The position numbers were made by a program, and so were the translations under genes. Positions 21,996 through 32,548 of a stretch of 64,000 nucleotides of DNA are shown here, piece after piece (within the stretch, counting starts at the first letter, position 1; each line of letters opens with the position of its first letter). The notes beneath the pieces are model-generated. The model saw only the letters and a list, made by a program, of their open reading frames with translations. It had not been told where the DNA came from and made no database searches. Source of the stretch: a virus (taxonomy: Duplodnaviria > Caudoviricetes); IMG/VR virus record IMGVR_UViG_3300031760_000035, positions 1 to 64,000 of that record; one strand, given 5' to 3'.

Positions 21996-22664
21996 CTACA
22001 TGCCAGCTCTTCTGTCAACGTTTCCAAGCGCGACGCTCGCATACCGTTCGCGGAACCTGCTCACGATAGCCATGGCAGTCTCGTTGTCACCGCTCTTCGA
22101 CATGCGCCGGGCCAATGCGTCGGGCGTGAACTGGGTGGTCACGATGGTCGGGCGCTTGTTGGCGTATCGGTCATCGACAATCGCGAACAGCCTGCTCAGC
22201 GCCCACTGCGACGGAACCTCCTTGCCGAGGTCATCGATAACCAGCAGCGCGCATGACGTGTACCTGCCGATGACCTGCGACTCGCCCTCGGTTCGGCTGG
22301 AATAGCTGTCGCTTATCTCAGACAGCAGGCGCACCGACGATATGAAGCGCGCCTTTCCCCTGCCGCATGACAGCCAAGCCTTCGTCACCCTTGCCGCGAG
22401 CCACGTCTTGCCAGCCCCCTGCACGCCGCTGATGTAGAGTCCACCGCCGCCATCGAGCGCGTCGAGCATGTCGTAGTCCGGCTCTGCCGCTATGAAAAGG
22501 CTCGGGATGCCGCACGCGACAGCCTCCTGGTCAAGTGCGACGCCCTCGATCCTCATGTCGGTCTGCTTGCTGACCATCTTCGTCAGCCAGTCTGGCGGCT
22601 TAGTGCCGCTCTCCACGTACAGGTCGTAGAGTTCATCAAGGCTAACGTAGGTCTTGAGTTCCAT
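21996..22664 (-). CDS. DnaC/IstB-like AAA+ ATPase (helicase loader)
   Basis: Walker A GVQGAGKT, Walker B LLVIDDLGKE, PTIVTTQF. Confidence 0.9.
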   Translation of the reverse strand: MELKTYVSLDELYDLYVESGTKPPDWLTKMVSKQTDMRIEGVALDQEAVACGIPSLFIAAEPDYDMLDALDGGGGLYISGVQGAGKTWLAARVTKAWLSCGRGKARFISSVRLLSEISDSYSSRTEGESQVIGRYTSCALLVIDDLGKEVPSQWALSRLFAIVDDRYANKRPTIVTTQFTPDALARRMSKSGDNETAMAIVSRFRERYASVALGNVDRRAGM

Positions 22665-23130
22665 CCTCTCCCTCCTTTGACGAGAGAAGCGCATCCACCC
22701 TCTGAATGCGCTCTCCGATCCAACGCATGACTGGCACGGCCATGGAATTGCCAGCACACTTGTAGCGTGGGCTGTCACAATCGCTGCTGGCCCACTTCCT
22801 CACCTTTCGGCGCAGCCTCTCCCTCTCTTCGTCGCTGTAATTGAATGACGCCGCAACCCTTTCGGTCACGGCGTCAACGTCACAGTCTCGAAGGCTCGTC
22901 CATCCTGTCGGAAAGCCCTGCAACCTCTCGCACTCGTCTGGCGTCAACCGCCTTACCACATACTCGAAGTTGTCGGCAGAGTCGGGGACGAACATCGTCT
23001 GGTCTTGTGTCGTACTAAGCGTGTAGCTCACATCCTTGTCCCACATTGCGCCCTCGCCCCCACCAACATTGGGTGTGCCGGTGTGACGCAGCTTCAACAT
23101 GTAGACGGACTTCTCATCATCCGCATCCAT
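22642..23130 (-). CDS. C5-cytosine MTase C-terminal polypeptide (motifs IX-X)
   Basis: VRRLTPDECERLQGFP and RYKCAGNSMAVPVMRWIG; has its own GGAGGTG RBS. Confidence 0.85.
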   Translation of the reverse strand: MDADDEKSVYMLKLRHTGTPNVGGGEGAMWDKDVSYTLSTTQDQTMFVPDSADNFEYVVRRLTPDECERLQGFPTGWTSLRDCDVDAVTERVAASFNYSDEERERLRRKVRKWASSDCDSPRYKCAGNSMAVPVMRWIGERIQRVDALLSSKEGEDGTQDLR

Positions 23131-23137
23131 ATCGCGC

Positions 23138-23332
23138 TCACCTCCAAGAGTCGGGTTCGAGGATCAGTCCACCCGCTCGTATCGACTGGTTGTTTGTGAA
23201 CTGCTTCTGCCCGTCTGTGGCATTGAGCGTTGGGTAGCAGTCATCCCCGTTGCTTGTGAGCGGCCCACGAGCACCATGGCATCCTTTGACATGTGTGCAG
23301 TCAGCGTGGGAACGACCCCCCCCCCGAGCCAA
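23138..23332 (-). CDS. Out-of-frame TRD-like segment of the C5 MTase
   Basis: CYPTLNATDGQKQF module; joined to the MTase only if the G10 tract changes length. Confidence 0.5.
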   Translation of the reverse strand: MARGGGRSHADCTHVKGCHGARGPLTSNGDDCYPTLNATDGQKQFTNNQSIRAGGLILEPDSWR

Positions 23333-25232
23333 TTTCCGCGTTGCCGTTCGTGCTTGCCATCACGAGGGGTTCGTCATCGTGGCGACGGTATGCGACCGCC
23401 TCTGGGCCAGACGCATCGACTGTGTGCGCGACCTCATCGGATATGCCGCATCCGTTGGCGCTCGTGTTCGCGGTTCGTATGGCTATCGCTGGCGAGTGCC
23501 AGTCTGCGGTCAACGTGTTGCAGGTGCCATCGTCGTACGTCGGCATGCTTCTCGCCGCAGCGCTCGCGCTGTACTTAAATGCGGTTATACCCCCCCTCGC
23601 AACCCTCGTCAGCGCCGTCTCTAGCTGCGGCGGCAAGCTCCTCCCTCTTCTTCTTGCTCGACGCAGGATGCCCGAACACGCCCTCGCGCTCAAATAGAAC
23701 CGCTGAGGAACCCCCCCCGATCCAAGACATCCGACAAGAAAGACACGTCTGCGCCGCTGGGGAACTCCGAAGAACTGGCTGTCAAGCACTCGCCATGCCA
23801 GACCATACCCGAGTTCATCCAGCTCCGCGAGCAGGGTTCCAAAGGCTCGCCCCCTGTCTTGCGAGAGCACGCCTGGAACGTTTTCCCAGAGGAGCCACCG
23901 GGGTTCAATTTCACGAACAGCTCGTACGTACTCAAGCATGAGCTGACCTCGCGGATCCATGAGTCCTCCGCGCTTTCCTGAGATGGAGAACGCTTGGCAG
24001 TTATGAACGGCAATTCCATCTGCTGTATATGAGTTGTCATCTTCGACCTCCAAGTTGTAGACGGTTGCCGTTCCTGATGGAGTGAACGACTGAACAATTC
24101 TCTTGACGTACCCGTTGTCAATCTGACAGCGACCGCCACTCTTGCCCAAGGTGACTTTGTACGATGGCTTGACCCGATACTCGACTCCCTTGATTACGGA
24201 TGTGCCGCGCTCTGTGGGCTTAGCCACTGAACCGACTCTCGAAAGGAGCTGGATGCCGATGGTCAACGCCTTGGATACGCTTTCAGCTGATGTGACGCCG
24301 CTCTCATACTTGTGTCCATCGGTTGCCATGTAGCCGCGAACGATTGCCTGCCGCTCGGCGTCAGACAGTGCAAGCGCCCAAGCGGGGATGTTCTTATTGG
24401 CTGCACCACGACCAAAGTGCCGTTCCAGAAAGCGGCACAACTCGGTGTTGTGGATTACGACTCGGCATCTCGTGTCATCTATGCGCTCGACTCGATAGTT
24501 CATCTTCTGCTTGAATCGAGCTACAAAACCAACGAGCTTGCTAGGACAGATGGACAGCTCAAGCGTTCTCAGTGTTGGGTTTCTTCTGCCCTTGCCGGCT
24601 ATCAAACCATCCCCGAGATACCAGCCGATTAGCTCGGCAATCTCGACGTTATCCAAGTCGTACACCTTTGGGTACTCAGGCACCAGACAATCAATGTCTG
24701 GGACCATACAGGCACAGAGTCCTACAGCGTCTTCCGCTGAGACGAACTTCTCACTCTCGAATCTGAACCAGCTACCGTCTTCGTTGGCCTTTCCCCTCTG
24801 CGTGCGCTTCGAGGTGAGGATCGGATGACTCGGCGTGCACTCAATGGGCATTACTCCGCATATCTTCAAAACGCCAACATCGGTAACTCTCGCTCCCGTG
24901 TCGAGCACCTTGCGGAGCCTGCCCTTGTGAGTCACAACCCGGTCCCCGACGCGTACCTGCTCAATGGGCTTGAACCCATCCTCGCAAAGGACTAGGGTAC
25001 CCGCTGTGAAGCACGGCGTACCGCCAACGACCAAATCTACTCTACCCTTGTACGGTTTCCAATCGACGTTCGCTATGTCCCCAAGGTTGGGAACGTCTGG
25101 GTATCTGTGCGCAAGGACGGCGCTTGGGTAAGGCTCGACCTCCGCAAACGCAAGGGGCTCGAATCCAAGAACGTCCCATGCGACGCTTGCCGCCTCGATG
25201 CCAGAGCACAGTGACACGTACCTTATCGGCAC
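23301..25232 (-). CDS. C5-cytosine DNA methyltransferase (motifs I-VIII) with intein
   Basis: SLCSGIEAA (I), GGTP|C (IV), WENVPG (VI), PQRRRRVF (VIII). Confidence 0.9.
   Translation of the reverse strand: MPIRYVSLCSGIEAASVAWDVLGFEPLAFAEVEPYPSAVLAHRYPDVPNLGDIANVDWKPYKGRVDLVVGGTPCFTAGTLVLCEDGFKPIEQVRVGDRVVTHKGRLRKVLDTGARVTDVGVLKICGVMPIECTPSHPILTSKRTQRGKANEDGSWFRFESEKFVSAEDAVGLCACMVPDIDCLVPEYPKVYDLDNVEIAELIGWYLGDGLIAGKGRRNPTLRTLELSICPSKLVGFVARFKQKMNYRVERIDDTRCRVVIHNTELCRFLERHFGRGAANKNIPAWALALSDAERQAIVRGYMATDGHKYESGVTSAESVSKALTIGIQLLSRVGSVAKPTERGTSVIKGVEYRVKPSYKVTLGKSGGRCQIDNGYVKRIVQSFTPSGTATVYNLEVEDDNSYTADGIAVHNCQAFSISGKRGGLMDPRGQLMLEYVRAVREIEPRWLLWENVPGVLSQDRGRAFGTLLAELDELGYGLAWRVLDSQFFGVPQRRRRVFLVGCLGSGGVPQRFYLSARACSGILRRARRRGRSLPPQLETALTRVARGGITAFKYSASAAARSMPTYDDGTCNTLTADWHSPAIAIRTANTSANGCGISDEVAHTVDASGPEAVAYRRHDDEPLVMASTNGNAEIGSGGGSFPR
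23690..24040 (-). CDS. Alternative-frame ORF overlapping the C5 MTase, truncated at the G8 tract
   Basis: GGAGGT RBS and ATG inside the intein 3' end; SSGKT...WMNSGM...SEFPS...LSDVL; G9 would extend it into VPQRFYLSARAC...LETAL. Confidence 0.6.
   Translation of the reverse strand: MTTHIQQMELPFITAKRSPSQESAEDSWIREVSSCLSTYELFVKLNPGGSSGKTFQACSRKTGGEPLEPCSRSWMNSGMVWHGECLTASSSEFPSGADVSFLSDVLDRGGFLSGSI
24000..25013 (-). mobile_element. Intein (338 aa, Hint plus LAGLIDADG-type endonuclease) inserted in motif IV
   Basis: Starts CFTAGT after GGTP; block B CTPSHP; LIGWYLGDG and VRGYMATDG; ends VHN followed by catalytic Cys (+1). Confidence 0.9.
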
Positions 25233-26585
25233 CTACTCACCTCCCATGATGTCGAACAGCGTGAGCTGGGCATCACTGTCGCCGCCCTTCTCCGCGCTGT
25301 CGTTTGGCTTGTCCTCGTCATGCGGTAGCCTGCTCCGCATACGGCTGTCTGCTATCTCGCAGTAGTGGGAATCCATGTCTATGCCCACGAAGCGCATGCC
25401 CTCGTCCATGCAGGCAACGCCAGTGGAGCCACTTCCCATGAACGGGTCCATGACCACCCCCCCCTGCCTGCAAACGAGCTTCACGAGGTAGCGCATGAGC
25501 GCGTTGGGCTTGACGCACGGATGGTCGTTCTTCACGTCGCCGCAGTTGCGGTCCTTCTTGGACGCCTTCGCGCAGTAGAAGAAGCGCGCCGCACTGCCAG
25601 TGTCGCCATACCCAAGCTGATCTTGGTACTCATGGCCGTTGAACTTGCCATAGATGCCGTTCTTGCCAGGGGCCTTGACGCCGCCACCTCCACTTGACTT
25701 TCCAGTTGACGGGAACATGGCGACAACCTCGTCGCTACCGTCGTGGACGAGGTTTGCGGGGTAGCGTCCGAGCTGTTCGCTCTTCGCTATGTTCTCCTTC
25801 TTGCGCTCGACAAACGCGGCTTGCATGTCCGGATCGTCCATGAACGGACGCCGCCAACCGTCCTGTGCGGACCCAGCCTTCATGCCGCCACCAAGGCTGT
25901 CGCTAGTGGGTATGCGGCATGCGTCGATGTTGATTGCGCCGGTGCCATACTTGCGCACGTTGTTGACAACCGTGCCGCTCAGCGGCTTGTACGCCAGGAT
26001 GATGGGTTCCCATGCGGGCTTTAGGTGCGTGTTCCACCCCTCCCACTCCCAAGCATCGTCTGGAAAGCCTTTCTCCATCATGCGTCGTACGTTCTGGCCG
26101 TGCGGCATACCGGAGCCGTAGACCCACATCATGCAGTCCTTGACAATCCAGCCTGCGTCCTCGATGGCGCACGCGATGCGGTGAAACGTCCTCGTCCCGC
26201 CAAAGCAGAGCATGTGGGCACCAGGCTTTGCGACGCGAATGGCCTCCTCGAAGATTGGGGTCATCTCCTCCTGGAATCGTCGCATCTCACCGACTGTCGG
26301 CGTCTTTCCATGGCTGTTGCCGAACTTCGGGACAGCGGCGTTGCTGTTGTCGTAGGCACGGCCCTTCTCCATGCGCTCCGCCACGGACTCTGTGCCGTTC
26401 GGCTTCCCGAAGGTATCCCAGCTAGCGCCGCCAAAACCAAGAGCATATGGTGGGTCTGTAACAATGGCGTCCACGGAATCGCTTTCCATGGACGCCATCT
26501 CGCTCAGGCAGTCGCCGTTATGTATCGTGTATCGTTCGCTAATCTCGCTCGCCCCCGTCTCTTCTGTTCCACGCCAGCACGACAT
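25233..26585 (-). CDS. N4-C/N6-A DNA methyltransferase (beta class)
   Basis: IVTDPPY, HPCVKP and MDPFMGSGSTG; internal in-frame G8 tract at 25457-25464. Confidence 0.9.
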   Translation of the reverse strand: MSCWRGTEETGASEISERYTIHNGDCLSEMASMESDSVDAIVTDPPYALGFGGASWDTFGKPNGTESVAERMEKGRAYDNSNAAVPKFGNSHGKTPTVGEMRRFQEEMTPIFEEAIRVAKPGAHMLCFGGTRTFHRIACAIEDAGWIVKDCMMWVYGSGMPHGQNVRRMMEKGFPDDAWEWEGWNTHLKPAWEPIILAYKPLSGTVVNNVRKYGTGAINIDACRIPTSDSLGGGMKAGSAQDGWRRPFMDDPDMQAAFVERKKENIAKSEQLGRYPANLVHDGSDEVVAMFPSTGKSSGGGGVKAPGKNGIYGKFNGHEYQDQLGYGDTGSAARFFYCAKASKKDRNCGDVKNDHPCVKPNALMRYLVKLVCRQGGVVMDPFMGSGSTGVACMDEGMRFVGIDMDSHYCEIADSRMRSRLPHDEDKPNDSAEKGGDSDAQLTLFDIMGGE

Positions 26586-26796
26586 GGTTCACTGCGGCCG
26601 GCAGCGTGCTTCTGTAGCACGACATGTCAGCCGGGCACCCATCGCCTGTGCAATAGATCTGCGCGTAGTACTCGGCACCATCCCAACCGCATTCGAGCTT
26701 CGCGCTACTCCCACAGAAGGGGCAGTGCATCGGATCGTCCGCAGTCATTGGAGGGCCTATCGTTCTCGTCATCGTCACGCACTCCAACATCTTCAA
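26539..26796 (-). CDS. Lar-like (restriction alleviation) zinc-ribbon protein
   Basis: CPFCG...C...C...AWNRR. Confidence 0.7.
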   Translation of the reverse strand: MKMLECVTMTRTIGPPMTADDPMHCPFCGSSAKLECGWDGAEYYAQIYCTGDGCPADMSCYRSTLPAAVNHVVLAWNRRDGGERD

Positions 26797-27422
26797 ATTG
26801 CGCCTGTTCAGGCTCGTAGTCCTTTACCCACTGCGTCGCCATCGCCTTGGCAATGCCGTGGAATGTCTTGCTGCGCAGCTTCGCCCTGTCATGTGGTGAA
26901 AGGCTCCATGCCTCGGCGTACCACGTCGGCATGGTGTTGCCGCTGGCATAGACCATGCGCGGCTCTGGCTCCACCACGTTCGTCGGTTGCAGCGGTGGCA
27001 ACCCCTTTAGCCACAGGCAGGTCTTCTTCTCGTATGGGTCGCCGAACATCCAGGGCTGTATGATCTGGTCTGGCTTCCTGTACAGCCTGCTCATGATGCC
27101 GACAGGATTCTCGATTGCCACGCGTGGCACGTGGTCAAGGCACGTGAACGCCTTGAAGAATCCGATGCCCATGTCCTGCTGGCCGTTGCGGCGCTTTCGC
27201 TCGAACCACGCCGCACCGCTCACCGCCAGATGGGTGCATGGCGGAAACGCGATCACCATGTCCCAGTCCATCTTCACGACCTCAAGCGCGTCTGCCTGTA
27301 TGTGCCACTCAGGGTGCATGCCAGACGTGGGGAGAAGATCGCAAGAGAATGCAGTGTGCCCCCCCCCGACGCAATTCCGCAGTCACAGCCTGCGACTCCT
27401 CACATGCGCAAAGCACTCGCAT
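26705..27422 (-). pseudogene. Cytosine-MTase-like gene frameshifted at G9 tract (27359-27367)
   Basis: MRVLCACEESQAVTAELRR|GGHTAFSCDLLPTSGMHPEWH...FPPCTHL...IENPVG; G8 restores the frame. Confidence 0.85.
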
Positions 27423-27483
27423 CAAATCACCGTCCTTCGCTAATAGAAATGGCCCCAATGGGCCACTTGATTTGCTTCTGCTC

Positions 27484-27579
27484 TTACCTGTCCTCGTTCA
27501 TCGCGCCGCATCTGGGGCAGTAGTTCGGTGGCCCATTGAAGCCGCCCATCCTGTAAAACCAGTCCCACACACAGCCGCA
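27484..27579 (-). pseudogene. 3' half of a zinc-ribbon gene cut by the IS right end
   Basis: CGCVWDWFYRMGGFNGPPNYCPRCGAMNEDR* begins exactly after the TCAA end; no start codon. Confidence 0.6.
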
Positions 27580-27720
27580 TTGACACTCCCCACGGCTAAA
27601 TCATGGGGGATTCCTGCTTCGTCGAGAATGTACTCTCGTACAGGTCCAAAGTCCTCTCCACAGGCGTTGATTCCCGTGTGCCCCACGGTATGGCATAGCT
27701 ACATGGCGAGAAGTCTCTTG
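27580..27720 (-). ncRNA. TnpB omega-RNA scaffold / IS right end
   Basis: ACGCCTGTGGAGA...GAAGCAGGAATCCCC-CATGATTTAGCCGT-GGGGAGTGTCAA; subterminal hairpin ending in TCAA; 5' boundary approximate. Confidence 0.7.
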
Positions 27721-28823
27721 CCTTCTCTCGCTATATTCATAGCGGCATTGATGTCGCGGTCGTGGTGAGTTCCGCATTCTGGACATGTCCACTCGCGCAT
27801 CGAGAGCGTGAGATCGTCGAAGACGCATCCGCAGTTTCCACAGGTCTTGCTGCTCGGGAACCATCGGTCGATCTTGACGAACGCCCTGCCGTACCAGTCG
27901 CACTTGTACTGAAGCTGTCGGAGTATCTCGGACATGCTCGCGTCACCGACCGCCTTTGCAAGGTGATGGTTCTTGACCATGCCCATCACGTTGAGGTCCT
28001 CGACGGCGATGGCTTGGCTCTCGCGCACCGCCTGCGTCGTCGCCTTGTGGATGGCGTCCCTGCGTTGATTGGTTACCTTCTCGTAGACAAGCGCGACCTT
28101 GCGCTTCTGCTTCTGCCAGTTGGCCGAGCCTTTCTTTCTACGGGAAAGCCTGCGCTGCTCGCGTCGGAGCTTCTTCTCGGCCCTTCGCAGAAACTTGTGA
28201 TTCGGGACCTTTACTCCGTCCGAGCGGATCATCAGGTCCTTAACTCCTGCGTCGATGCCAAGCATCTCGTTCTCGCCCATCGGCATGTTCGGCTCGGGGA
28301 CGTCGGTACAACAGATGATGACGTAGTACTTCCCGGACGGGACTCGCTTCACGGTGGCATTGAGGATGCGGCCCTCTACAGGCTGCGTGATCTTGCACTT
28401 CACAACGCCAAGTTTTGGCAGCTTGACATGCGACCCATCAATCACCGTAACCTTGCATCCAGCGGCAGGGTTACGATAGCTTTGTGTGCCATCTCGTCTT
28501 GACTTGAACTTTGGGAAACCTGGCTTTTCGCCGTTCTTCACGCGGCGGAAGAAGTTCTGATATGCCTTGTCAAGGTCTCTGATTGACTGCTGCAACGCCG
28601 AGTTGCTGACCTCGTACAACCATGGCGCGACCGTCTTCTTCCACACGGTAAGCTGTTTGCACAGATCGAACTGCGAGAGATTCTTCTTCTCGCACTCCCA
28701 TGCGGCCTTCTTTGTCTCCAGTGACAGGTTGTAGACCCACCGACAAGCGCCGAAGGTCTTTTCGATTAATGCCACCTGCTCCTTGTTCGGATACAGGCGG
28801 CATCGATATGCTCTTTGTATCAA
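27699..28823 (-). CDS. tnpB: RNA-guided endonuclease TnpB (tnpA-less IS200/IS605-family element)
   Basis: RAYRCRLYP HTH, FPKFKS, RuvC GID/VED/DRD intact, CGNCG and CPECG zinc finger; likely TTG start at 28823 with GAGGT RBS. Confidence 0.92.
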   Translation of the reverse strand: MIQRAYRCRLYPNKEQVALIEKTFGACRWVYNLSLETKKAAWECEKKNLSQFDLCKQLTVWKKTVAPWLYEVSNSALQQSIRDLDKAYQNFFRRVKNGEKPGFPKFKSRRDGTQSYRNPAAGCKVTVIDGSHVKLPKLGVVKCKITQPVEGRILNATVKRVPSGKYYVIICCTDVPEPNMPMGENEMLGIDAGVKDLMIRSDGVKVPNHKFLRRAEKKLRREQRRLSRRKKGSANWQKQKRKVALVYEKVTNQRRDAIHKATTQAVRESQAIAVEDLNVMGMVKNHHLAKAVGDASMSEILRQLQYKCDWYGRAFVKIDRWFPSSKTCGNCGCVFDDLTLSMREWTCPECGTHHDRDINAAMNIAREGKRLLAM

Positions 28824-28899
28824 TGTAAAAAACCTCATAATATGGTGATGTGGCGGGTGAGGCATCCCGAGCGTGCGCGGAAGGCACACTTGTCTACCT

Positions 28900-29095
28900 G
28901 CGTACTTACGGGAACAGGCCGCAGTACTCATTCACTTTGCCTTGGCACACGCACTGGTTCCTGCTTCTGCGACACGTGACTAGAGCTTCCGAACGAAGCT
29001 CCCCCGCCAGAGGTGTCTCCACAGGCGTAACTTCCCACATGCCATGCGGTAGATCGTTGTTAAACTCGCTTGGTTTCAATAGCTACAACAAAAAA
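28900..29095 (-). mobile_element. Orphan TnpB 3'-end/omega-RNA-like remnant
   Basis: Shares ACGCCTGTGGAGA and GAAGCAGGAA with the downstream omega RNA; encodes an EVTPVE TnpB-tail-like peptide. Confidence 0.5.
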
Positions 29096-29102
29096 CAGCA
29101 AC

Positions 29103-29157
29103 GGTCTCGCGGGGTCTCCCAGTCATCACTGTTGATGCTCATCAAGCCTGTGTTGAT
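29103..29157 (-). pseudogene. 5' fragment of a second Dam-family MTase
   Basis: INTGLMSINSDDWETPRD versus INAGMMSSDRGDWETPRD at 32011-32065. Confidence 0.6.
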
Positions 29158-29352
29158 CTACAATTCCCTCCCGCACATCGGGCAGTTCCTTATCGGAATG
29201 ATGAGCACGACCTTGAAGCAGCCGTCTTGTGGGAGCCACACGGCAAGCGCGCTGTCATACAGCATCAGGACCTCGGCATCGTCACTGTAGACGATGGGCT
29301 TGTTGCGGTATTCCTCGTCAGTGCCGTTGTACTTGCAGTATGGGCAGCTCAT
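29158..29352 (-). CDS. Small zinc-ribbon protein (CxxC...CPMCG)
   Basis: MSCPYC...CPMCGREL. Confidence 0.7.
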   Translation of the reverse strand: MSCPYCKYNGTDEEYRNKPIVYSDDAEVLMLYDSALAVWLPQDGCFKVVLIIPIRNCPMCGREL

Positions 29353-29558
29353 AGCTCCCTCCCGCACATGGGGCAGAACTTGATCTCGAAGAACCTCTCG
29401 CACTCCCCCGTGGGATGCCCAATGTAATCCTCGTCAGTCTCGTAGAAGGAGCTGACTTCGATCTGCTTGCCCACTATCTCGGCATAGAGATACGTGTTGT
29501 CGGCGATAGGCTCGTGCCACCAGCCGTTCACGCCGTCCGTGCAGTACTTGCAGCTCAT
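29349..29558 (-). CDS. Small zinc-ribbon protein (CxxC...CPMCG)
   Basis: MSCKYC...CPMCGREL. Confidence 0.7.
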   Translation of the reverse strand: MSCKYCTDGVNGWWHEPIADNTYLYAEIVGKQIEVSSFYETDEDYIGHPTGECERFFEIKFCPMCGREL

Positions 29559-29827
29559 GACAGCTTCCTCCCGCACATCGGGCACACCTTCGGATGGAAC
29601 TGAGCGACTGCCGGGAGTGCGTACTTGCCAGCCATGTCATCGTCAATCAGGACCAGCAGCGACCACTCGCTGAACTCGAAGTCAAACCAGAGGTTGACGC
29701 GGCCCTGCGCGTGATGAACGAGGTCATCGTCCTTGGTGAACGCCCACTCGCCTACAAGGATTCCACCCTCAAGCTCGCCACCATTGCGGGCAACGGCAGC
29801 GTCTAGGTCACAGAACTCGCAGCTCAT
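29555..29827 (-). CDS. Small zinc-ribbon protein (CxxC...CPMCG)
   Basis: MSCEFC...CPMCGRKL. Confidence 0.7.
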   Translation of the reverse strand: MSCEFCDLDAAVARNGGELEGGILVGEWAFTKDDDLVHHAQGRVNLWFDFEFSEWSLLVLIDDDMAGKYALPAVAQFHPKVCPMCGRKLS

Positions 29828-30135
29828 TCCTCGCCGCCACCAATCTCAAGCGCGTACCGACCAGTCAGGAACGGGCGCTCCTCGAACGCCACCGGGTCGT
29901 ACTTCATCTCCGTTACAGGTGTCGCCTTTAGGACTGCCAGCCTTCCAGCGCAGGCTGTGCATAGGTCAACCACCATCTGCCGCATGTACTTACAGTCATT
30001 GAGGTCTGCGTTGCTGACCAGCACAGGCACCGTGTAACGAGTGAGTTCAACCTCGTCTGGCCTCACGTCAAGGGTCTTCCCACATACGTCACACGTGACG
30101 CGGATGAAATCCTTTCTTCCCATATCTACTCCCAT
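29824..30135 (-). CDS. Zinc-binding hypothetical protein
   Basis: CDVCG...DLCTAC. Confidence 0.65.
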   Translation of the reverse strand: MGVDMGRKDFIRVTCDVCGKTLDVRPDEVELTRYTVPVLVSNADLNDCKYMRQMVVDLCTACAGRLAVLKATPVTEMKYDPVAFEERPFLTGRYALEIGGGEE

Positions 30136-30878
30136 AGCTTGATTGACAGCGTGCCGTCATCGAGGTCGATGCCATGCTCCTTGAGCTTCTTCAACTGTTC
30201 CTTCATCTGCTCGTGCTCATCGATGATGTCGGCCAGAGTCCAAACGTAACCGTCGTAGAAGCACTCGCGCTTGCCGTTCCGCGACAACCCCAGCTCGATG
30301 TTGCCGTCCTCGTCAAGCGAGAAGTCAACCGCCTCGATGCAGCCAGTCTTGTCCCAGTTGCCGAGCCACGTTCGGTGATGCTCGTAGACGTGGGCGTAGA
30401 CACCCCACCGCGTGTCATCGTCGTAGACCTCGTGCTCGTCCATTAGGTGCGTGTCCCAGTAGAGCTTCGTCGCCAGTCCGCTGCGGTTGCCCCACACGTC
30501 AATGCACATCTGGTAGAACGGGGACTCCTTGAACTCTTGGAACGTGTACTCCTTCGACCAGTCGGTGAGTCTCTTGGGGTTGTAGCAGCCGTCGCGTAGG
30601 TTGGTGACCTGCGTACGCTGCACGCAGACGGTAACCAGGTCGTAGTAGCTGCTTGGAATGACGCGGAGCTGCATGTCGATGATGTCGCCTTCGTGGTACT
30701 CTCGGCTGCTGAACACCCTTGGCCCCAAGCGCTCATACTCTATGATTCCATCGACCTTGCTTGCCGTGTCGTACATGAGCCGCAGGTCGCGGATGTTCTT
30801 GGGATCCGGCTTGGGTGTTTCCCTCCTGCCGTTCGGAACCATGACTACCACCTCCACCAAAGAGCTTCTATGGGCCAC
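30126..30878 (-). CDS. Hypothetical protein
   Basis: Long ORF in operon; start uncertain. Confidence 0.7.
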   Translation of the reverse strand: MAHRSSLVEVVVMVPNGRRETPKPDPKNIRDLRLMYDTASKVDGIIEYERLGPRVFSSREYHEGDIIDMQLRVIPSSYYDLVTVCVQRTQVTNLRDGCYNPKRLTDWSKEYTFQEFKESPFYQMCIDVWGNRSGLATKLYWDTHLMDEHEVYDDDTRWGVYAHVYEHHRTWLGNWDKTGCIEAVDFSLDEDGNIELGLSRNGKRECFYDGYVWTLADIIDEHEQMKEQLKKLKEHGIDLDDGTLSIKLWE

Positions 30879-31252
30879 TCGTTCGTGACGGCATCCCAGT
30901 TGTCCTTGCCGTCAAGCTCGTAAAGCCAACTCCTGATGCACTTGAGGGCACCATCCAACGTCCCCCAACCGTTCTCAGGCTCGTACTGCCTGTACATCTC
31001 AGGATTTCGTTGCAGCTCCCACAGTCCGCGCCACAGCTTTGGCACGACCTCCTCCATCGGGTAGTAGGCTGGATGCCAATTGCCATCTGCGTCCTGCTCG
31101 CTCTGGCTGTAGTCCCAACCCATGCAGGCACGGAACATCTTGCGGTAGTTGTAGGTGGGCGAGTCGTATTCTGGGACGTGAACCACGCAGAAGTGCTCTC
31201 CGTCATTGTCCGGCATCACCGTCTCGACGCACCAGCGGATGTCGTAGCTCAC
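30845..31252 (-). CDS. Conserved phage hypothetical protein
   Basis: MSYDI...TYNYRKMF...YEPENGWG pattern. Confidence 0.7.
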   Translation of the reverse strand: MSYDIRWCVETVMPDNDGEHFCVVHVPEYDSPTYNYRKMFRACMGWDYSQSEQDADGNWHPAYYPMEEVVPKLWRGLWELQRNPEMYRQYEPENGWGTLDGALKCIRSWLYELDGKDNWDAVTNEWPIEALWWRW

Positions 31253-31599
31253 TCGGCGTCACGCTCCTCCTTCAACTCGTCAAGCACCTCGCGCCACGCC
31301 TTCTTGCGACCACCGCGCATCGCCATGAGAAGCGCTGCCTCGTCAATGACATCCTGTGCGTGGCGCTCCATCCACTTGTCCATGTAGTCGTTGACGTACT
31401 TGTGCCAGTTGACCTTCGGCTTGCCATCCTTGCCGATGCCGTAGGGGCTGTATCCGTAGTCTGAGGGAAGGGCTTCGGCAATGCCCTGACGGACTACGCT
31501 GTCGATGACCTTGGCGACCTCTTGCGCGCCGATGTTGGCTATCTGCGCCTCGATTGGCGACGTGTCGTAGGTGAACGGAATCGTAACGTTGTGAATCAT
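31249..31599 (-). CDS. Hypothetical protein
   Basis: GGAG RBS; ATGA overlap. Confidence 0.65.
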   Translation of the reverse strand: MIHNVTIPFTYDTSPIEAQIANIGAQEVAKVIDSVVRQGIAEALPSDYGYSPYGIGKDGKPKVNWHKYVNDYMDKWMERHAQDVIDEAALLMAMRGGRKKAWREVLDELKEERDAE

Positions 31600-32065
31600 G
31601 TCTCCCTCGCCTTCTTTGGCAATGCGCCACCCCATCTGACAAGAGCAGACGGGAACGGCGCACTCTGTTGCTGGACTCCGTTGATGCAGAACCTGACGCG
31701 ACCGCTGAGGAACTGGATCTCTGCGGCCATAGGCTCAACCCAGTTCGTCCACCATGACGTGTCGGTTCTCGCCGGCAGAAGCCCAACGACTATGGTGTTC
31801 GGCTTCCGCGACTCTCTTGCGGCCTTCTCGACCCACGCCCCGATCTCACGTCCGTAGGGCGGATTCATGTAGCAATGATGCCCCCCCCCCACGACCTTTC
31901 CAGGGCGTTGTCCTCCTTGGTGAAATGCTGCTCGCACAGCGCGTTATCGTCGCTGCTCGCAACGTCCAGGTCGAAGTGCCATATGCTGTCGCAGCGGTCG
32001 AACAGGTCGCGTGGCGTCTCCCAGTCGCCCCTGTCGCTGCTCATCATGCCCGCGTTTATTGGCAT
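31596..32065 (-). pseudogene. Phage Dam-family N6-adenine MTase frameshifted at G10 tract (31881-31890)
   Basis: DWETPRDLF...FDLDVA...DNALERSW|GG(G)HHCYMNPPYG...VGLLPARTDT...SGRVRF...APFPS; G8 or G11 restores the frame. Confidence 0.85.
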
Positions 32066-32073
32066 GTCCACTC

Positions 32074-32370
32074 CTAATCAAAAAGGGCCGTCTGGCCCTC
32101 CTGCTTCTTCTTCCTTCTTGTCTCCGCATGATGCTTCGCGTCGTATCTGAGGTGGCATCGGGCGCATCCGGCCATAAGGTTCTCTGGCCTGCAATCCTCT
32201 GGCGTGTGGTTCAGATGCATCACCGTGAGGATTCGCCCGTGGTCCTCGACCTTCTCGCCGGGTCGATAGCACTGTATGCCGCAGATTTGGCACTTCCAAC
32301 CTGCGGCATCCTTCACCCTGAACGCTATCTCATCCCAGTTCTTCGGGTAGCGCTTCCTATCCATCGGCAT
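32074..32370 (-). CDS. HNH-family endonuclease
   Basis: CQICG...LTVMHLNH...ENL...CARCH. Confidence 0.75.
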   Translation of the reverse strand: MPMDRKRYPKNWDEIAFRVKDAAGWKCQICGIQCYRPGEKVEDHGRILTVMHLNHTPEDCRPENLMAGCARCHLRYDAKHHAETRRKKKQEGQTALFD

Positions 32371-32548
32371 CGGCGTCATCCTCCAACATGCAAATGAGGT
32401 CATCCGCGAGGTTGGCTAGGTTGCTCTTGGCGTTAAGCAGCTCCTGCTTAACCTTGCCATCAGAGAGTGACGCCAGAACCTCTAGCTTCCCCTCGATCCA
32501 ACCGACCGTAAGAACCATGTCCATGATGCCGCGCTTGTCGTTAATCAT
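32357..32548 (-). CDS. Hypothetical protein
   Basis: Coupled ORF. Confidence 0.5.
   Translation of the reverse strand: MINDKRGIMDMVLTVGWIEGKLEVLASLSDGKVKQELLNAKSNLANLADDLICMLEDDADADG

Follow-up and report, generated by a model that had tools for sequence, protein, structure and literature searches.

Whether a phage can switch its own DNA modification on and off through homopolymer runs is the question raised by four orphan DNA methyltransferase (MTase) genes in the IMG/VR virus record IMGVR_UViG_3300031760_000035. The record is a virus genome of 74,958 bp (98% complete by estimate, 59% G+C) from an uncultured phage of gut type, and the window, i.e. the whole stretch presented here, comprises its bases 1-64000 (64,000 nucleotides). 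The four genes, which encode a C5, an N4/N6, a phrog_757 and a Dam-type MTase, carry six long runs of G, and three of them are disrupted in the assembly. We consider it probable, with roughly two chances in three, that the six runs are real, selected and hypermutable simple sequence repeat (SSR) contingency loci, a reading that draws on comparison of sequences within this genome and across other phages.

An earlier note, made from the letters of the window, had listed six G/C runs of seven bases or more and stated that it saw no others there. Positions and lengths agreed exactly with the sequence, and a census extended the second statement to all 74,958 bp: the entire genome contains six such runs, every one located inside the four MTase genes. 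All six are runs of C on the plus strand, hence of G on the minus, coding strand. Run lengths of C on the plus strand are bimodal (36 runs of five, one of six, and six of 7-10), and runs of G on the same strand stop at five (10 of that length, none of six or more). The MTase genes make up 6.9% of the genome, which gives a probability of about 1e-7 that all six runs would fall inside them by chance. Homopolymers of about seven or more G/C inside a coding sequence are the mark of an SSR contingency locus, and the six G runs of 7-10 are of this kind. The enzyme identities proposed in the earlier note were all upheld (as PF00145 C5, PF01555 N4/N6, phrog_757 or “FPPC type”, and PF05869 Dam), with profile matches over the curated cut-off and catalytic motifs (NPPY, DPPY, PC...ENV...QxRxR, FPPC) in all four families.

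A change in run length would toggle these genes between a full-length and a truncated product. The Dam, phrog_757 and C5 genes are truncated at their runs, and the run lengths predicted to be in frame reproduce the junctions found in homologues. The Dam gene is divided into two open reading frames (ORFs) matching PF05869 positions 6-59 and 60-132, and since the profile match divides there, the break sits at the run. Two 88%-identical homologues (P0001, P0002) are single Dam proteins of 154 amino acids (aa), whose junction W-G-G(-G)-H...N-P-P-Y would be given by G8 or G11. In the phrog_757 gene the initial 21 codons are one frame off the remainder, and the profile (E 8e-55) matches over positions 50-235 only. 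Removal of one G yields ...L-R-R-G-G-H-T-A-F-S-C-D-L-L-P, which is the exact junction of two proteins (P0122, P0126) that are 93% identical to this MTase and continuous across the site. The view that the N4/N6 run is in frame and that the phrog_757 G9 and Dam G10 are frameshifted at the run was therefore borne out. The further claim, that one-base changes restore intact motifs, stood for phrog_757 (G8) and failed for Dam in so far as it meant any one-base change, because Dam needs +1 or -2.

The same sites were then compared in other phages of IMG/VR, using pattern scans anchored on the run and its downstream motif; the figures for Dam, phrog_757 and N4/N6 are counts among the matches listed, and are to be read as at least. 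Public assemblies are consensus sequences, so that out-of-frame counts show length differences between populations and not switching rates. Runs of G8-G14 occupy the equivalent codons of all four MTase families in many unrelated phages. Dam genes with a run were in frame in 57 cases and out of frame in 44 (44/101). At the phrog_757 site G8-G14 was present in at least 115 genes (78 in frame, 35 out, 35/113), and at the N4/N6 site G8-G13 in at least 119 loci (40 in frame, 17 out, 17/57, with 62 frame unassigned). The site of C5 run 1 gave 15 in frame and 17 out (17/32). As a control, Dam genes whose Gly codons are interrupted (TGG GGH GGH) were in frame in 88 cases and out of frame in one (1/89; Fisher p = 1.6e-13 against the run-bearing Dam genes). 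The out-of-frame share is therefore 30-53% across the four families, compared with 1% in the run-free control.

The composition of the Dam site points to selection. Across 240 loci whose Dam homologues are intact, the W-G-G site has a longest G run of 2-5 bases in 211, of six in none and of 7-11 in 23. Among 37 distinct W-G-G Dam genes, GGG fills 57% of the two Gly positions, where the background of the same loci gives 17.6%; both codons are GGG in 14 genes, compared with 1.2 expected (p = 4e-12), and the GGG-rich genes include those of phages of 29-31% G+C. This enrichment argues that the run is kept by selection, and not merely tolerated.

Run lengths also differ where flanks do not. Allelic series with identical or near-identical flanks and differing run lengths were found in IMG/VR for Dam, phrog_757 and N4/N6; one Dam lineage with identical flanks contains seven cases of G9 and one each of G8 (in frame) and G10. 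A repeat whose length varies between close relatives with constant flanks is thus observed in the series of other phages. For the lineage of the phage itself the evidence is at the protein level only, in the form of in-frame relatives at 88-93% identity. A close relative of the whole phage was not found in INPHARED, IMG/VR, JGI metagenomes or GTDB genomes, and the best candidate was a contig of 1 kb whose Dam is 73% identical. The named homologues come from Parvibacter and Eggerthellaceae, and for this reason the host is probably a member of the Eggerthellaceae, which should be taken only as a hint. The comparison of tract lengths in related phages that the earlier note had suggested showed differing lengths at homologous sites, including the identical-flank series, and the note's proposal of hypermutable poly-G switching of phage MTase genes gains support from this cross-phage comparison.

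Cultured phages show the same sites. Bordetella phage BPP-1 (65% G+C) has, according to the GenBank records, a single G/C run of seven or more in its genome, a G8 in the adenine MTase gene bpm (PF01555). This run lies at P-G-G-V-V-L-D-P-F, the site homologous to that of the N4/N6 run in the window; the length there is G8 in BPP-1 (in frame), G8 in vB_BbrP_003, and G9 and G10 respectively in the BPP-1 siblings BIP-1 and BMP-1, the flanks of BPP-1, BIP-1 and BMP-1 being identical. The likeness thus consists of a run at the same Gly-Gly codons, before V-V-L-D-P-F-x-G-S-G. BPP-1 has one MTase with one run, whereas in the phage described here six runs are spread over four MTases, each of a different family. 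The preprint bioRxiv 10.1101/2025.10.21.683753 credits the first mention of poly-G in the BPP-1 methylase gene to Liu et al. 2004 and states that this run was not studied further. In Faecalibacterium phage FP_Lagaffe the Dam gene is split at TGGGGGGG (G7), at the same W-G-G site, where G8 would be in frame.

The C5 enzyme differs in its architecture from the other three, as motifs I-VIII and IX-X lie on adjacent ORFs (Table 1). The C-terminal piece has its own GGAGGTG Shine-Dalgarno sequence, inside which the conserved frame of the N-terminal piece ends (TGA, 23140-23138), and its ATG (23130) is placed 8 nt past that stop. Locus L727 of IMG/VR has the same layout, an N-terminal piece ending in an identical type of module, a stop and a restart. 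Because both this stop-restart layout and the C-terminal module recur in L727, the C5 enzyme is predicted to be a naturally split MTase and not a pseudogene. The module was also detected by tblastn in the C5 genes of further loci (L731, L754 and L722, besides L727). Split or multispecific C5 MTases are known, namely the two-subunit enzyme M.AquI and the type found in the Bacillus phages SPR/phi3T. Our enzyme resembles these in having two ORFs split between motifs VIII and IX and several TL-type recognition modules, a likeness of layout; it differs in that its N-terminal piece bears an intein and three poly-G runs.

All three C5 runs are one base off the register of the homologues in this assembly. 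Motif VIII (QRRRRVFLVG) begins at 23759, and a segment following it, V-L-F-E-x-E...S-S-x-x-K-R-x-E-L-A, is conserved in 103 of 120 full-length C5 homologues. In the window this segment is coded one frame (+1) away from motif VIII. Of the possible readings between G8 and G7, that of 37 aa in frame mod3=0 matches the 103 homologues and that of the open frame in the assembly matches none; past G7 the frame read is again the conserved one. As a correction to the earlier note, the G8 (one base short) and the G7 (one base over) cannot count as neutral in-frame runs; they are a compensated -1/+1 pair, which leaves the ORF open and replaces 38 conserved residues. At the third run the frame read in the assembly ends after four codons, so that the N-terminal piece is open only to the stop at 23303-23301, while the -1 frame (G9) runs for 58 residues. 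A search of 1.84 billion proteins with the peptide of this frame (23141-23314, minus strand) gave 26 homologues at E<=1e-3, in most of which the match lies at the C-terminal end. Several C5 genes of IMG/VR likewise contain two or three runs. As assembled, the N4/N6 MTase is predicted to be on and the Dam and phrog_757 MTases off, bearing in mind that the run lengths could be miscalls; C5 seems to be in a non-canonical state, with 38 codons out of register and the final 58-residue module cut off.

The predicted intein is inserted in C5 motif IV (GGTP|C...HN|CQAFS), where the catalytic Cys serves as the +1 residue. The homologues align over 25226..25011 and pick up again at 23999. The element shows an N-terminal Cys, a C-terminal His-Asn, a +1 Cys and a LAGLIDADG domain, the LAGLIDADG_3 match being under the Pfam cut-off (17.6 vs 22.5 bits). 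A C5 homologue of 838 aa (P0278) likewise has intein domains.

Three other interpretations of the C5 region were rejected. Dual coding after run 1 (Y-L-S..G-I-L-R-R-A vs V-L-F-E-P-E-S) is contradicted by the homologues, 0 of 120 of which have the YLS reading and 103 of 120 the VLFE reading; in other phages the VLFE frame alone continues to motif IX. An overlapping ORF of 149 aa (24139..23690) was considered as a gene, but the same frame holds stops in other phages, and it looks like an off-frame shadow of a conserved region. A C5 pseudogene with an in-frame TGA (23166-23164), the true frame after G10 being mod3=0, was discarded, the homologues being in frame mod3=1 only and the stop with its restart belonging to the conserved split layout. 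PHROG scans of the short peptides between the C5 runs gave no match. The off-frame reading past run 1 (window 23597-23710; Y-L-S-x-K-A-C-x-G-I-L-R-R-A...L-P) is open over about 40-48 codons in almost every locus from L718 to L754 and is used by no full-length protein; it could be an effect of composition or a tolerated alternative segment.

Table 1. Coordinates of the MTase genes, the G runs and the predicted intein in the window.
Feature	Coordinates	Strand	Remarks
C5 MTase, C-terminal piece (target recognition domain (TRD) + motifs IX, X)	22642..23130	-	PF00145 positions 256-294; matches 120/120 homologues
C5 MTase, N-terminal piece (motifs I-VIII + TRD modules)	23138..25232	-	PF00145 E 1e-40; phrog_116/363
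C5 run 3, G10	23316..23325	-	G9 would add 58 aa into conserved C-terminal module; G10 leads to stop 23303-23301
C5 run 2, G7	23590..23596	-	Homologue register G6 or G9
C5 run 1, G8	23711..23718	-	Just after motif VIII; homologue register G9 or G6
Predicted intein, 338 aa, LAGLIDADG endonuclease	24000..25013	-	Hint_2, Hom_end_hint and LAGLIDADG_3 matches
N4/N6 beta-class DNA MTase, intact	25233..26585	-	PF01555 E 4e-34; phrog_67
N4/N6 G8, in frame	25457..25464	-	Gly-Gly codons just before V-V-M-D-P-F-x-G-S-G (motif I)
phrog_757 MTase (“FPPC type”), frameshifted	26705..27422	-	ATG at 27422; downstream 204-aa ORF 27319..26705
phrog_757 G9	27359..27367	-	R-R-G-G-H codons; G8 restores frame
Dam-type N6-adenine MTase, frameshifted	31596..32065	-	PF05869
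Dam G10	31881..31890	-	W-G-G codons before NPPYG; frame restored by G8 or G11

We propose that slipped-strand mispairing during replication would add or remove a G, shift the frame and so turn an MTase on or off. The progeny would then carry different frames, each MTase state being heritable but reversible, and the N-terminal piece of the split, three-run C5 gene could take more than two forms. We infer that switching within the population of this phage would be frequent as well as reversible. Orphan MTases shield the DNA of phages against classical restriction, and methylated DNA is the target of Type IV nucleases. The payoff may therefore be that some of the progeny escape methyl-dependent (Type IV) nucleases and others are protected from classical restriction; by analogy with the agt gene of phage T2, a mixed methylome would hedge across hosts. 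An antagonism of Mrr to phase-variable Mod has been described (PMC3152355).

Several observations weigh against the contingency-locus reading. In five of the six runs the length departs from the register of the homologues, a picture that homopolymer miscalls would also give. The length differences observed are those between phages; for the phage itself the comparison was with single homologous proteins from short contigs, and the out-of-frame counts from consensus assemblies reflect differences between populations, not rates. Moreover, 39 long G/C runs lie outside the Dam site in 4.9 Mb of other phage loci; at least seven of these are in MTases, and the remainder in PemK, HTH, Fic, integrase or unassigned genes. 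The adaptive purpose, finally, is suggested by analogy.

The first of these points leads to the rival explanation that survives best, a caveat raised in the earlier note that still holds, although we regard it as unlikely: the runs would be real, but their lengths in the contig would be sequencing or assembly miscalls, all four MTases being truly in frame and none switching in this population. Long-read and flow-based platforms are notoriously error-prone at homopolymers of 7-10, and the deviation from the homologue register is by a single base in each of the five runs (one or two bases for Dam). The deviations, however, go in both directions (-1, +1, +1 and +1, with +2 or -1 for Dam), and stray frameshifts are absent from the remainder of the assembly, where 92% of the sequence is coding and ORFs of 1630, 1160 and 957 aa are intact. 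Many independent assemblies contain these sites, out of frame in 30-53% of cases compared with 1% of controls, and the sites also vary between the genomes deposited for cultured phages. Nor can miscalls account for the presence of the runs in MTase genes only. The existence and the variability of the runs are thus independent of whether the lengths in this contig are miscalled.

It is far less probable that the MTase genes are decaying pseudogenes, in which poly-G would mark the weak points where unneeded genes break and not a maintained, reversible switch. Three of the four genes are disrupted here, and the C5 gene has three separate off-register runs, as decay would predict. Both halves of the broken genes are nevertheless open and conserved, in this phage and in the out-of-frame alleles of others; in out-of-frame Dam alleles both sides are as intact as in in-frame alleles. 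Once the split C5 layout was recognised, no further disabling mutation was found, and the GGG enrichment at the Dam site indicates a run that is kept and not tolerated. In-frame and out-of-frame alleles, moreover, alternate within lineages. Equally improbable is the expression of the out-of-frame genes by transcriptional slippage or ribosomal frameshifting, with the run as a dose-setting attenuator instead of a heritable switch: long homopolymers can support slippage of RNA polymerase and a low MTase level may suffice, but no frameshift-stimulating signal was seen (no search aimed at one was made), no single rule fits the shifts needed (+1 or -2 for Dam, -1 for phrog_757, several for C5), and length differences at the DNA level, observed directly between related phages, are enough to explain the pattern.

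The reading as SSR contingency loci has a counterpart in phage T2, where experiments have shown that DNA glucosylation is switched by an A run in agt, one state being favoured by TgvAB and the other by McrA/BC (bioRxiv 10.1101/2025.10.21.683753, Gomez, Barrick, Waters). Frameshifts of +/-1 turn the modification off and on, with reversion about 1000 times more often than point mutation, and the phage is caught between a Type IV nuclease directed at modified DNA (TgvAB) and one directed at unmodified DNA (McrA/BC); the name “phage contingency loci” dates from 2025. The common feature is a homopolymer with natural +/-1 alleles inside a phage DNA-modification gene. The two cases differ in that agt concerns A runs in a glucosyltransferase gene of a coliphage and is known by experiment, whereas here there are several G runs per genome, at Gly-Gly codons of MTases, known from sequence alone.

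In bacterial phasevarions, SSRs in the MTase coding sequence toggle the enzyme by slipped-strand mispairing (PMC5909438, PMC4889913; discussed in PMC3152355). These are Type III mod, Type I and IIG enzymes of Haemophilus, Neisseria, Helicobacter and Campylobacter, and the likeness lies in the intragenic SSR. Phasevarion MTases are encoded on the chromosome, mostly within restriction-modification systems, and regulate genes, whereas the MTases of the window are phage-borne, orphan and presumed to protect or expose phage DNA. The genes described here lie in a phage genome, outside the definition of a phasevarion as a chromosomal restriction-modification MTase with a regulon, and no restriction subunit is adjacent to them among the ORFs at 22.6-32.4 kb, where the sole nuclease is a phage-type HNH gene. 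A different use of poly-G is found in Fletchervirus (Campylobacter phages), in which, according to Sorensen et al. 2021 (Cell Rep 35:109214), runs of G7-G11 in receptor-binding protein genes generate subpopulations; those runs act on host recognition and not on DNA modification.

The mechanism itself is already known from bacterial phasevarions, T2 agt and BPP-1 bpm, and has been little described in phages. In the literature searched we found no description of its site-specific recurrence across four MTase families or of high out-of-frame shares across viromes, nor of a phage with long G runs nowhere but at six switches of four MTases, among them a split, intein-bearing, three-run C5. A broader proposal, which we put forward tentatively and rate as somewhat short of an even chance, is that poly-G at fixed Gly-Gly codons by the catalytic or cofactor motifs is an old and widely shared design of phage orphan MTases, coupled to a combinatorial methylome. 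The four enzymes would be switched independently and C5 would have more than two functional states (an alternative linker, an optional C-terminal module), giving many methylation types per burst to match different sets of host defences.

Some further observations concern the surroundings of these genes and their homologues. An HNH endonuclease gene (phrog_1571; 32074-32403, minus strand) is located immediately upstream of Dam. Between the phrog_757 MTase and Dam, and just upstream of the former, there is a TnpB / IS605 OrfB gene (27699-28931, minus strand) with HTH, OrfB and Cas12f-like TNB domains, and no TnpA was seen; the untranslated gap of 276 nt after the TnpB stop (27423-27698) could hold a TnpB guide (omega) RNA. 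Three small paralogues of about 65-90 aa stand in tandem at 29158-29827 (minus strand), repeated with a spacing of about 191-209 nt, and share the start M-S-C-x-Y/F-C and a conserved C-terminal C-P-M-C-G-R-E. In Cellulophaga phages (KC821627, KC821619, KC821617) and the Methanosarcina virus MetMV (MK170447), a phrog_757-type match spans two annotated “hypothetical proteins”, and the gene may be split in those records as well. In one gut phage lineage that also has the Dam run (IMG/VR loci L263, L278 and L303), a G8/C8 run recurs within a toxin gene of PemK/MazF type or beside it; further runs are located in a Fic gene, an integrase-like gene and a gene for an HTH regulator.

If phage MTases are routinely switched by G runs, the methylation pattern of a phage would characterise a mixed population instead of a genome sequence, and its host range with respect to restriction and methyl-dependent defence would likewise be a population property. 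Many annotations of “broken” MTases would then represent off states and not errors or pseudogenes, which would bear on the prediction of host range, the design of phage therapy and the reading of methylation-based metagenome binning. The site-specific recurrence of the runs in four unrelated MTase families provides a simple sequence signature by which such switches may be counted across viromes.

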